64,000 nucleotides of DNA from Candidatus Spongiisociaceae bacterium. Its GTDB lineage: Bacteria; Actinomycetota; Acidimicrobiia; Spongiisociales; Spongiisociaceae. Below the pieces are notes generated by a model. That model was not told where the DNA came from and searched no databases. It worked only from the letters and a program-made list of their open reading frames with translations. Location: contig OZ241841.1 in the NCBI GenBank assembly GCA_965202665.1, forward strand, positions 224,001 to 288,000. The letters run 5' to 3'. Positions 3,165 through 55,445 of the stretch are shown here, piece by piece; position 1 is the stretch's first letter, and the number at the start of each line of letters is the position of its first letter. The translations under genes were made by a program, and so were the position numbers.

Positions 3165-3186
3165 AACATAAGGTAAGAGTGCGACA
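3165..3186 (-). promoter_or_regulatory. RecA-independent/PafBC-type promoter motif of comM-dprA-xerC (leaderless)
   Basis: Minus strand TGTCGC-ACTCTTACCT(10)-TATGTT, then 6 nt to the ATG. Confidence 0.7.
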
Positions 3187-3281
3187 AAAACAAGGGGGTT
3201 ATTTTATAATACTTAAAATCCCAGGTCAGAGTGGGTTTCGGAGGTGATTATGGACGGGCGACGAGGCCGGCCCGGGCCGGA

Positions 3282-3740
3282 TCAGGGGCGCATCAACTCC
3301 ACTCCGGGGGGCCGATAGCCGCGGAAACGATGCTGGGCCGCCCGCTCCACGAAGGCCCCCACTTGCGTCAGGCGGGTCGCCACCGCCCGATCAGTGATGC
3401 GGATCACGGTCCATCCCGCCTCGGTCAGGGCGGCGTTGACCCGGCGATCCCGCTCCATATTGCGCTGGATTTTGTTGCGCCAGTATTCGGACATTTGGCT
3501 GAACCGCTGCGGGCTCAGTTTCTTGCCGTGCCAGAACTCGCCGTCTACGAACACCGCAATGCGACGGCCCACCAGGGCGATGTCGGGCCTGCCCTCCGCC
3601 TTTGGATAATCCAAACGGTAACGCAGGCCGCGCCTGGTCAGCTCCCGCCGCAACGCCAGTTCGGGGCCGGTGTCCCGTCGCCGAATCCGACGCATAATTT
3701 CCGACCGCTTCTCGGGTGTGAACACATCGCGTCCGCTCAC
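3282..3740 (-). CDS. vsr: Very-short-patch repair endonuclease (Vsr family)
   Basis: DVFTPEKRSEIMRRIRRRDTGPELALR, GRPDI, VFVDGEFWHG, YWRNKIQRNMERD, GWTVIRI; GTG start at 3740 inferred. Confidence 0.88.
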   Translation of the reverse strand: MSGRDVFTPEKRSEIMRRIRRRDTGPELALRRELTRRGLRYRLDYPKAEGRPDIALVGRRIAVFVDGEFWHGKKLSPQRFSQMSEYWRNKIQRNMERDRRVNAALTEAGWTVIRITDRAVATRLTQVGAFVERAAQHRFRGYRPPGVELMRP

Positions 3741-3797
3741 CCCTCCCAAAATACCCGGCGGGGAGGCGGGGAGCAGGGGAAACGGGTTTTATCCGAC

Positions 3798-4565
3798 TCA
3801 GCGGCCGGTGAACTGCGGGGGGCGGCGTTCCAAAAAGGCCCGGATGCCTTCGGTTGCGTCGTCGCCGCCCAGGCAAATGGCCTGCGCCTGGCCTTCCCGG
3901 TCCAGGGCTTCGGCGAAACCGGACTCGTGGGAGGCGTTCAATCCCTGCTTGGCGAACATCTGCCCCACCGGAGCGGCCGCCGCCAACTGTTCAGCCCATT
4001 CGGTGACCCGTCCCTCCAGGTCTTCGGGGGGGACCGCTTCCAGAACCAGGCCGATGCGCACCGCTTCCGCGGCCTCCACCATTCGCCCGGTCAGGGCCAG
4101 TTCCTTGGCCCGGGGCAGGCCGACTATGCGGGGCAAGAGCCATGTCCCCCCGAAGTCGACGGTCAGGCCCCGCCGTACGAAAATCTCCGAGAACCGGGCC
4201 CGGTCGGTGGCTATCACCAGGTCGCATCCCAGCGCCAGGTTCATTCCCGCCCCCGCCGCCGCCCCGTCCACCGCGGCCACGGTCGGCTTGGTGAGGCGGT
4301 GCAAGGCCAAAGCCGCCTCCCCCACCCGCCGCATGCGGGCCCGCAGGCCGGCCATGGACCGGTCGGGGCGCCCTCCGCCCAAGTCGGCCCCGGCGCAGAA
4401 ATCCCCGCCCGCCCCGGTCACCACCAGCGCCCGCTGCGGGGAGTCTTCAAAGTCGGCGAAGGCGTCCCGCAACTGATCCCACCCTTCGGGGGGAATGGCG
4501 TTCTTCCGTTCCGGGCGGTGCAACGTCAGCCACCGCACCCGTCCCCGGTCCTCAATCAGCAACAT
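3798..4565 (-). CDS. Enoyl-CoA hydratase/isomerase family protein
   Basis: LTLHRPERKNAI, FCAGADL, KPTVAAVDGAAAGAGMNLALGCD, EGIRAFLERRPPQFTGR. Confidence 0.92.
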   Translation of the reverse strand: MLLIEDRGRVRWLTLHRPERKNAIPPEGWDQLRDAFADFEDSPQRALVVTGAGGDFCAGADLGGGRPDRSMAGLRARMRRVGEAALALHRLTKPTVAAVDGAAAGAGMNLALGCDLVIATDRARFSEIFVRRGLTVDFGGTWLLPRIVGLPRAKELALTGRMVEAAEAVRIGLVLEAVPPEDLEGRVTEWAEQLAAAAPVGQMFAKQGLNASHESGFAEALDREGQAQAICLGGDDATEGIRAFLERRPPQFTGR

Positions 4566-4589
4566 GTGGCTTAGACTAGAATAAAGCGG

Positions 4590-53916: not shown

Positions 53917-54082
53917 CGAACCCCGTCGTCGGTTTGCTCTTTAGATTATTTCCCCTCTTTTATATTCTAAACTAATAATAATATGTTTTATCCTCTATCT
54001 ATATCGTAAAAATCTTGAGAACGCGAAAAAAATATGGCAAAAAGGGTTGTTGTTTAGGATTATTTACATTATATTACGATAT

Positions 54083-54619
54083 ATGGGATACGCAGCGTCC
54101 GAAATCGCCCTTCGCGGTAGCAATACCCCCGTCTCTTTGGGCGTCTCGCATTTTTCGGGCGCTGCGATCCGCCCCTCCGCCCGGCAACGGCGGCGAATCC
54201 GGCCCCGCCTGTGGCCCCATCCGGCGCCCGACGGCCTGCTCCCCGACCACCCCTACGTGCATCGCTATTGGAGCATGGCCCTCGGCTCCCGGCCGATGGC
54301 GGAACTGTTGCGCCTCATCACCGCCGCCCAGCGAGGGGAGGCCATCCGCCAACCGGTTTTCCTGGCCGTGCTGGCCCGGGAAGGGTTGGCGGCTTTCGGA
54401 GAAGACGCGCCGGGCGGCCCCTCCCGGTGCGCGGAGATCATCTGGGTCAGGGATCTCCTCCCTCCGCTGGGAGCGCAACAGGTTTCCCGCCTGGCCTACG
54501 AACTGCGCCGCCGCCACACCTACGACCTGGCCCTGGCCGCGGCCAGCCAACGGGCCGGCCGCCCCCGCATCTCCCCCTGGCCGGCCGGGGAGCGGGGGGT
54601 TCCGGGCGGGCGCCGCTAA
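54083..54619 (+). CDS. Hypothetical protein
   Basis: ORF after an AT-rich region, with TATATT 7 nt before ATG 54083; HPYVHRYWSMALG...LLRLITAA reads like folded protein. Confidence 0.55.
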   Translation: MGYAASEIALRGSNTPVSLGVSHFSGAAIRPSARQRRRIRPRLWPHPAPDGLLPDHPYVHRYWSMALGSRPMAELLRLITAAQRGEAIRQPVFLAVLAREGLAAFGEDAPGGPSRCAEIIWVRDLLPPLGAQQVSRLAYELRRRHTYDLALAAASQRAGRPRISPWPAGERGVPGGRR

Positions 54620-54629
54620 AATCTTTCCC

Positions 54630-55403
54630 ATGTCCCCCATGGACCCGGCCCAACTGTCCGACCTGATAAGCCGCGCCGCCCGACTGCTGGACTCAGCCTC
54701 CCGGATTTTGGTTTTCACCGGAGCGGGCGCCTCCACCGAATCGGGCATACCCGACTTCCGCGGCCCGGACGGGATCTGGACCAAAGTGGACCCGGACGAG
54801 TTCACCATCGACCGCTATCTGGCCTCTTCCGAAACCCGGCGGCGCAGTTGGGCGATGTGGTCCCGGTCGCCCCTGCGCACCGCCCGCCCCAACCCCTCCC
54901 ACGCGGCGGTGGCCCACTTGGCCCGCACCGGACGGTTGGAAGGTTGCGTAACCCAAAACATCGACGGCCTCCACCAGCGGGCGGGCCTGGCCGGGGAACT
55001 GTGCGTGGAGGTGCACGGCAACGTGCGGGAGACGGCCTGCCTGAGTTGCGGTTCCCGTTGGCCGTCGGGCGAAGTGTTCGGCTGGGTGGAGTCGGGCGTG
55101 GAGGACCCGCATTGCCCGCACTGCGGGGGCATCCTCAAATTGACCGTCGTCTCCTTCGGGGAGACGATGCCCATGGCGGCCATGCAAAGGGCCCGGCTGA
55201 TGGCCGAAAATGCCGACGCGGTGCTGGCGGTGGGCACCACCCTGTCGGTTTGGCCGGCGGCTGAAATCCCGCTGTCCGCCGCCCGCCGCGGGGTCCCGTT
55301 CGTGATCGTCAACCTGGGCCCCACCGAATTCGACCAAGCCGCCCATCTGAAAATCGAGCATCCGGCCGGAGAAATAATGTCCCGGCTGGTCGCTATGCTG
55401 TAA
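54630..55403 (+). CDS. cobB: NAD-dependent protein deacylase (Sir2/CobB)
   Basis: FTGAGASTESGIPDFRG, TQNIDGLHQRAG, VHG, CLSC...CPHC, GTTLSVWPAA, VN. Confidence 0.93.
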   Translation: MSPMDPAQLSDLISRAARLLDSASRILVFTGAGASTESGIPDFRGPDGIWTKVDPDEFTIDRYLASSETRRRSWAMWSRSPLRTARPNPSHAAVAHLARTGRLEGCVTQNIDGLHQRAGLAGELCVEVHGNVRETACLSCGSRWPSGEVFGWVESGVEDPHCPHCGGILKLTVVSFGETMPMAAMQRARLMAENADAVLAVGTTLSVWPAAEIPLSAARRGVPFVIVNLGPTEFDQAAHLKIEHPAGEIMSRLVAML

Positions 55404-55423
55404 GATACCGAGAGGTCCGCCCC

Positions 55424-55445
55424 CGTCGCCCGCGTCCGCTACAAT
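55424..55445 (+). promoter_or_regulatory. RecA-independent/PafBC-type promoter motif upstream of the HIRAN gene
   Basis: CGTCGC-CCGCGTCCGC(10)-TACAAT, 30 nt before ATG 55476. Confidence 0.55.

Follow-up and report, generated by a model that had tools for sequence, protein, structure and literature searches.

A PafBC-type promoter motif in an Acidimicrobiia genome precedes transformation genes for DNA processing, not for DNA uptake

Is natural competence under the control of DNA damage in a bacterium of the class Acidimicrobiia? This question is raised by a stretch of 64,000 nucleotides from Candidatus Spongiisociaceae bacterium (assembly GCA_965202665.1, contig OZ241841.1; C1:224001-288000, in the following called the window), in which the motif YGTCRC-N10-TAnnnT precedes comM-dprA-xerC, yraN, comF, a gene for a surface protein with LRR and SLH domains and an open reading frame (ORF) with a match to HIRAN. 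A preliminary description of the window, which assigned the lineage correctly to the Acidimicrobiia, read the five sites as a variant of mycobacterial PafBC-activated promoters, under which the late transformation genes would form a damage-inducible competence regulon that had recruited a surface protein. Analysis of the genome (G000; 2.77 Mb, 64% G+C, single contig, 94% complete) makes it highly probable that sites of this type are PafBC-activated promoters of a predicted damage regulon of about 65 units, which covers the DNA-processing half of transformation but leaves out the uptake half. Directly established are the motif, its geometry, its position at targets, its conservation, the intact pafB-pafC pair and the co-occurrence with PafC.

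All five 22-mers are present in the window with the spacing and strands described: before comM (3165..3186, minus strand), the LRR-SLH gene (7335..7356, plus strand), yraN (9724..9745, minus strand), comF (27520..27541, minus strand) and the HIRAN-like ORF (55424..55445, plus strand). Shuffled windows are expected to contain 0.32 sites, and five were reached in 0 of 100 shuffles. Since the pattern had been drawn from these very sites, this test is post hoc, and it was therefore repeated genome-wide, where 81 matches were found with a 10-nt spacer and 14–27 with control spacers of 6–9 and 11–15 nt. The enrichment comes from the classes TGTCAC (37 at spacer 10, 0–5 at spacers 7–9 and 11–13) and TGTCGC (24 versus 3–9) and not from CGTCGC, which was barely enriched (14 versus 4–11); CGTCAC gave 6 versus 0–7. 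A position weight matrix (PWM) built from the TGTCRC sites of the genome comprises an A/T-rich lead-in, TGTCRCA and TAnnnT. Non-coding DNA, which makes up 17.7% of the genome, holds 72 of the 88 sites scoring at least 14, although coding and non-coding assignments are approximate because the gene caller was crude and overlooked genes, among them the first LRR-SLH gene of the window. In 28 of the 61 TGTCRC sites an ATG follows 6–8 nt past the last T of the -10 element, 20 of these at 7 nt, a spacing as predicted for leaderless transcripts. Grouping of the 61 sites gave 51 clusters whose flanks are unrelated, which indicates that the number of sites is not a repeat artefact. A stricter pattern occurred 9–97 times per genome in 29/29 genomes of the family, the reversed control 0–15 times. 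Four of the five window sites are thus genuine members of the motif: those before comM, comF and the LRR-SLH gene scored 21.2, 26.8 and 24.6, values that are not independent because these three TGTCRC sites were part of the PWM training set, and the yraN site scored 17.7. The HIRAN site is unsupported. A half-site for CRP or CRP-S (TCRCA) was considered as another source of the pattern and rejected, as no TGYGA palindrome was seen upstream at the window sites by inspection.

The likeness to PafBC promoters extends to the regulator. Only two WYL matches were found in the genome, and they are adjacent and represent pafB and pafC, the WYL genes that the preliminary description had suggested looking for. 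The pair precedes tatB-tatC, with pup and pafA of the Pup-proteasome locus a few kb away. The best PDB match of PafB is PafB of Mycobacterium smegmatis (7p5x, E 9e-28), and the alignment retains the equivalents of R46, R50, E42, S40, K52, R56, R8 and Y76. In the structure obtained by cryo-electron microscopy, R46 and R50 read the GTC triplet of the mycobacterial consensus tGTCgg(N10)tA(N3)T (PMC8635444). TGTCAG and TGTCAC were reported as promoter variants in M. tuberculosis (PMC8151990), so that the TGTCRC form is neither new nor specific to this lineage. Across the phylum, 90 genomes were drawn, of which three unpublished ones (G136, G181, G221) were excluded. Among the 87 remaining, all other than G000, a leaderless form of the motif was at least 3-fold more frequent than its reversed control in 36 of the 51 whose PafC match was strong and in 1 of the 36 that were PafC-negative or weak (p 8e-10, which overstates the significance because related genomes are not independent). 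As far as can be judged from sequence, the system is a PafBC regulon by every testable feature.

The functions behind the sites fit such a regulon. Pfam was used to scan 73 genes that come first after a PWM or pattern site, and PADLOC for 25 of them; a strict set of 72 non-coding sites with PWM scores of at least 14 was reduced to 65 units by merging tandem sites and classified by hand. Repair, DUF222 or defence functions were assigned to 35/65 units and to 6/110 site-less operon-first control genes from 20 roughly evenly spaced 20-kb regions (p 4e-13, hand classification). Repair and recombination account for 15/65 units, namely ssb, two recA copies, ruvC, dnaG, recR, rmuC, dnaB, lhr, dinB, a RecQ-like helicase, an AdnAB-like pair that sits behind a short ORF after its site, comM, comF and yraN, in agreement with the enrichment at repair genes that had been anticipated. 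They are outnumbered by the restriction-modification (R-M)/defence and DUF222 units (20/65). The defence units (12/65) are DNA methyltransferases and type IIG enzymes, Cas7g, a cysteine desulfurase encoded ahead of SspB and a RAMA protein; DUF222(-HNH) genes make up 8/65 units, and 8/8 of such genes in the genome have a site. Outside the strict set, sites scoring at least 14 precede genes for DarG, HsdM and SspB, and pattern-only sites precede those for a Hhe-like helicase and a protein with an Mrr N-terminal domain. A site was found at 5/15 N6/N4 methyltransferase genes, and a WhiB-family gene is also among those with a site. In a genome of a different genus (G122), all 41 TGTCRCA sites were examined and the 34 with a plausible ORF scanned by Pfam: 11/41 precede DNA methyltransferase genes, 9/41 repair or recombination genes, one a DUF222 gene and one, judged by eye, comF.

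DUF222-HNH genes (C1:328718-329071, 599689-599932 and 2266175-2266308) carry two to four tandem copies of approximately 111 bp that comprise promoter and N-terminus, each with its own PafBC-type site and ATG, resulting in nested start sites. The recA copies (C1:132501-133665 and 1276072-1277230) are near-identical, with a strong site each and similar flanks. Likely LexA boxes (GAAC-N4-GTTC) were seen at C1:108264, 122948, 122985, 133847, 791206, 909659 and 2319906; they lie at ruvC, overlapping the start beside the PafBC-type site, in the region that separates lexA from the gene diverging from it, close to one of the recA copies and at three further places between genes. In G210, a genome of the same class, about 25 near-identical sites combine a PafBC-type promoter with an adjacent LexA-box-like start, GAACATATG, and probably belong to a repeated gene family under dual control.

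Several points weigh against a PafBC regulon of this scope. PafB has Thr in place of A43 and Ala in place of K5. In G000, strong sites were not found at uvrA, polA, recG, recO, mfd, nucS or lexA, of which uvrA, polA and recO set the genome apart from the mycobacterial regulon, and uvrB has only a site of the TGTCGG form (PWM 3.1). The function of 30/65 units is unknown or lies elsewhere, examples being glycogen synthase, IF-1, transport lipoproteins and SLH proteins. The control genes were scanned at E<=1e-14 and the targets at 1e-5, which may undercount functions in the control, and the relatives used for conservation counts share ancestry and are not independent. Finally, two comM loci of the same order (G003 and G015) lack the site.

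At the locus that gave rise to the question, the promoter consists of a -26 element TGTCGC, a 10-nt spacer and the -10 element TATGTT, followed after 6 nt by the ATG of comM (1689..3158, minus strand; YifB-family AAA+ helicase, TIGR00368, 452 bits, over cut-off), whose transcript is predicted to be leaderless. The start of dprA (637..1689, minus strand; TIGR00732, over cut-off) overlaps the comM stop, and dprA has no site of its own (PWM -8.7). About 30 nt after the dprA stop lies a gene for a XerC-like tyrosine recombinase of 299 aa (1..605, minus strand; PF00589 and PF02899), which runs past the left end of the window and is likely the third gene of the operon. Conservation was assessed in 39 actinobacterial comM loci, chosen among 80 by record title, with sequence-close 'bacterium' records among them. 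A site within 45 bp of the comM start was present in 29/39 loci, and in 32 within 200 bp, with none at spacers 7–9 and 11–13; 37/39 loci contain dprA, mostly directly downstream. None of 23 checked among the remaining 41 loci had a site in that position. Outside the order, 8/27 loci have a site within 800 bp upstream (0–2 at other spacers), and for these 27 loci a comM or yraN site occurred in 8/21 with and 0/6 without PafC (p 0.14). The comM-dprA site is therefore found across the Acidimicrobiia and patchily across the phylum.

The site before comF lies 8 nt upstream of its ATG. As TIGR00201 matches the gene (26885..27511, minus strand) far below the cut-off (E 3e-6), its identity leans on the usual gene order comF-hpf-secA, which is present here. 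Among the 30 best-matching comF loci in the order, 18 have the site (the comF and comEA counts comprise 30 loci and those for yraN and tad 29, all including G000; unpublished G016 was excluded from the latter two and included in the radA tally of order genomes given below). In M. tuberculosis, comF (Rv3242c) is a PafBC candidate with a log2 change of 2.0 with mitomycin C and of -0.15 on PafBC depletion (PMC8151990, Table S7). The gene for the UPF0102 nuclease YraN (9388..9717, minus strand; PF02021, over cut-off) starts 6 nt past its site, which was present in 4/29 loci, corresponding to 4/5 loci of the family and 0/24 from other families of the order. Conservation in related Acidimicrobiia, which the preliminary description proposed to check, thus holds for comM and comF, but is confined to the family for yraN and to the genus for the LRR-SLH gene. 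Among titles and abstract starts we found no report tying PafBC to dprA, comM or other transformation genes; the regulon determined by chromatin immunoprecipitation sequencing in M. smegmatis (Muller 2018) is outside this coverage and may include dprA or comM. The terms dprA and comE had no matches in the supplements of PMC5656591 and PMC8682763, the latter partly readable, and the curated sheet of Table S7 in PMC8151990 does not include dprA, comM, yraN, comEA or comEC. We regard the Acidimicrobiia PafBC regulon, the conserved comM-dprA promoter and the R-M arm as new, whereas the core regulon is expected biology and the TGTCAC variant and the membership of comF have already been reported.

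The genes for DNA uptake behave differently. In G000 the machinery is intact, in that the reading frames of comEA, comEC, tadA and of TadE-like and Flp-like genes are open, and neither comEA-comEC nor any of the three tad clusters is preceded by the motif; the best PWM scores are about 2 at tad-cluster genes and -2.6 at comEA. In the order, the motif was found before comEA in 0/30 loci and before the conserved tad operon in 1/29, the level of control spacers. The expected enrichment at comEA/comEC and tad/flp genes is consequently absent. Processing genes, namely dprA, comM, comF, recA and ssb, do stand under a common promoter motif, as would be expected for a competence regulon. Because the uptake genes were tested and lack the promoter, this is nevertheless not a competence regulon: judged by its sites, the promoter covers the cytoplasmic half of transformation that handles single-stranded DNA (ssDNA), and not uptake. 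Of the proposal that the lineage has damage-inducible competence, the placement of comM-dprA, comF and yraN under the motif stands and the competence part is not supported.

Instead, comEA has a conserved upstream element of its own, (C/G)TT(C/A)-N18-GRTA, in 26/30 loci across the order (L142-L171; 0–2 at other spacers), which may represent a SigA promoter of atypical form or be bound by a competence regulator. A PWM of this element gave no other site in G000, apart from one weak match without a gene behind it. Before tad the element occurs in 1/29 loci and is not enriched, so that a shared regulator of comEA and tad is not supported. Upstream of tad, visual inspection gives a -35/-10 layout with 17 bp between the two elements. 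The comEA element of G000 itself (C1:323610-323650, minus strand) is a looser version. The three Tad/Flp pilus clusters lie separately in the 2.8-Mb genome (C1:109310-114604, 861238-871698 and 1956953-1960835). In several free-standing relatives (L269-L291), TTCATGCCACA...AAGGGG is shared upstream of the -35/-10 layout of tad and represents a possible operator.

Other explanations have to be weighed against these data. If another activator or an alternative sigma factor read the motif, or if repeats had spread it passively, it would not be a PafBC promoter at all. The RCA at motif positions 5-7, which departs from the GG of the M. smegmatis consensus, the tandem duplicated promoters on DUF222 copies and the occurrence of the motif within a dispersed repeat of approximately 300 bp in the relative G094 would fit such an origin. 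We nonetheless consider it highly improbable in view of the geometry shared with the PafBC 22-mer, the reported TGTCAC variant, the two paf genes as sole WYL matches, the unrelated flanks of the 51 clusters and the way in which the motif follows PafC through the phylum. The G094 repeat (L204, G094:C1:1317745-1322697) has three copies at this locus, and 22-mers that are almost identical occur many times over in the genome; the repeat may be a small mobile element or an RNA with a damage-inducible promoter.

At the opposite extreme, PafBC might respond to damage by turning on natural competence in full, DNA uptake included, with surface LRR proteins as part of the programme. The intact comEA-comEC genes and tad clusters would be in accordance with this, as would an indirect effect of PafBC on uptake, for example via the WhiB-family gene with a site, and the finding that DprA, ComM and YraN are each required for transformation of Bifidobacterium, which in the phylum was shown only recently (PMC13660472). 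Such a programme is quite improbable, however, with comEA and tad at the level of control spacers, PWM scores to match and a separate conserved element before comEA. Moreover, SLH-bearing frames have a site in 3/60 cases, compared with 51/1247 operon-first genes, and in M. tuberculosis comEA and comEC rise with mitomycin C despite PafBC depletion (PMC8151990, Table S7). A possible, though not the favoured, explanation is that ComM, DprA, ComF and YraN are induced as repair or recombination factors for the cell's own damaged DNA, without a link to transformation, and that ComM could replace RadA. These genes share the regulon with recA, ssb, ruvC, recR and the AdnAB-like pair. Natural transformability is not known for M. 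tuberculosis, in which comF is a PafBC candidate as well. The radA/sms gene was found neither in G000 nor in the 4/4 family relatives, and thus in none of 5/5 genomes of family f1, nor in 2/2 of family f3; it is present in the rest of the order, while disA is retained in G000. Replacement of RadA is unlikely as a general reason because the comM site is widely conserved among Acidimicrobiia whereas radA is widespread, being present in 39/41 order genomes outside the family (a genome set that differs from the comM loci). In addition, ComM has been described as transformation-specific. Induction for repair of the cell's own DNA is compatible with the promoter part of the conclusion that we prefer, a PafBC regulon that takes in the processing genes.

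For such a regulon, a mechanism can be proposed from mycobacterial work, where ssDNA activates PafBC through its WYL domains (PMC11804915). Binding of ssDNA to the WYL domains would allow the helix-turn-helix of PafB to read GTC at -26 and PafC to bridge to region 4 of SigA, and by these two contacts the housekeeping polymerase would fire at promoters without a -35 element. Damage, or any surge of ssDNA, would then induce genes for repair, recombination loading (DprA, RecA, SSB), branch migration (ComM, RuvABC) and defence together, so that recombination capacity and R-M/CRISPR defence would rise together on DNA damage. DNA uptake would be controlled separately, via promoters with a -35/-10 layout, and damage would prime recombination and defence, not full competence. 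Since ComEC delivers ssDNA, incoming DNA could itself trigger PafBC. This leads to a speculative and rather unlikely extension, a two-step transformation circuit in many Actinomycetota, in which uptake would be driven from its own promoter and the ssDNA delivered by ComEC would activate PafBC and thereby DprA, ComM, ComF, YraN, RecA and SSB, along with R-M and Cas functions that vet the incoming DNA. If this were true, no regulator of late transformation genes would have been identified in the phylum before PafBC. The conserved PafBC-type promoter on comM-dprA and comF makes it possible to test directly if the recombination step is under the control of an ssDNA sensor.

Of the two remaining sites in the window, the strong one before the LRR-SLH gene (7397..9367, plus strand; LRR and SLH by Pfam) is real, but confined to this genus. 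The gene is flanked by a small conserved ORF on one side and by the 3' end of yraN on the other. In G072, of the same genus, the site scores 22.5, while the ortholog in G094 has no site within 350 bp, and an apparent site about 460 bp before it lies in the dispersed repeat and is thus not orthologous. In relatives no LRR gene separates the small ORF from yraN, which is encoded nearby on the other strand, so that the LRR-SLH gene together with its site resembles an insertion at the genus level. An enrichment at SLH genes in general was rejected, as their frequency of sites equals background. The recruitment of a surface protein that had been postulated is therefore possible for this single gene and does not amount to a programme. 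The small ORF (7125-7325, plus strand) encodes 66 aa with CxxC and RRHWH motifs and accompanies yraN, on the opposite strand, throughout the order. The first LRR-SLH gene (4590-6974, plus strand) shows in addition a weak match of M6-metalloprotease type, and the motif is missing upstream of it. The fifth gene, an ORF of 120 aa (55476..55838, plus strand) with a weak match to HIRAN (PF08797, E 2e-4, below cut-off), is genus-restricted and was found in 2/121 order genomes searched. Its membership in the regulon was rejected, as the CGTCGC site scores 3.8, its GTC is not retained in G072 and this class is barely enriched at spacer 10. The site is probably an ordinary -10 box with a chance match upstream.

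Damage-induced competence regulons are known from Streptococcus pneumoniae, with ComX, and from Legionella. Known competence regulons co-induce uptake and processing genes, whereas in G000 only the processing genes share the promoter. The late genes dprA, comM, comF and yraN and intact ComEA/ComEC and Tad machinery are nevertheless shared with the actinobacterial systems of Bifidobacterium (PMC13660472) and Micrococcus luteus (PMC12849477). The comEA/comEC regulator of M. luteus was described as still unidentified and Actinomycetota as having no identified competence regulator (PMC12849477). With the mycobacterial PafBC/RecA-NDp regulon, the system has in common the 22-nt promoter with its GTC core, 10-nt spacer and TAnnnT (PMC8635444, PMC11804915, PMC8151990, PMC8223512), the PafB/PafC pair beside Pup-proteasome and tat genes, and the targets recA, ssb, dnaB, ruvC, lhr, the AdnAB-like pair, uvrB, comF, DUF222/13E12, DarG and a DNA methylase. 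Our comparison with M. tuberculosis was based on all 90 rows labelled PafBC_candidate in Table S7 of PMC8151990, the text of which gives 126 regulated genes, and on the rows of six named genes; targets in common with this candidate table are ssb, dnaB, recA, lhr, the Rv3201c-3202c helicase pair, uvrB, comF, 13E12 repeats and a DNA methylase. In contrast, TGTCRCA predominates in G000 and TGTCGG in mycobacteria, and sites precede comM-dprA and yraN in G000, whereas Rv2896c-Rv2898c appear in the raw sheet only, outside the curated M. tuberculosis candidates. A further difference is that about one fifth of the G000 targets are R-M, Cas or Ssp defence genes. In this respect the regulon resembles that of DdaA in Moraxellaceae, a WYL activator over DNA-repair and R-M/CRISPR promoters, the main text on which is silent on dprA and comM (PMC12392091). 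DdaA binds approximately 50 bp upstream of where transcription starts and is thought to act without sigma adaptation (PMC12392091), whereas the activator in G000 would be a PafB/PafC heterodimer, and G000 also has LexA. As R-M and Cas genes stand repeatedly behind the motif in two genera, the comparison suggests that damage-coupled defence, as described for DdaA, also exists under PafBC.

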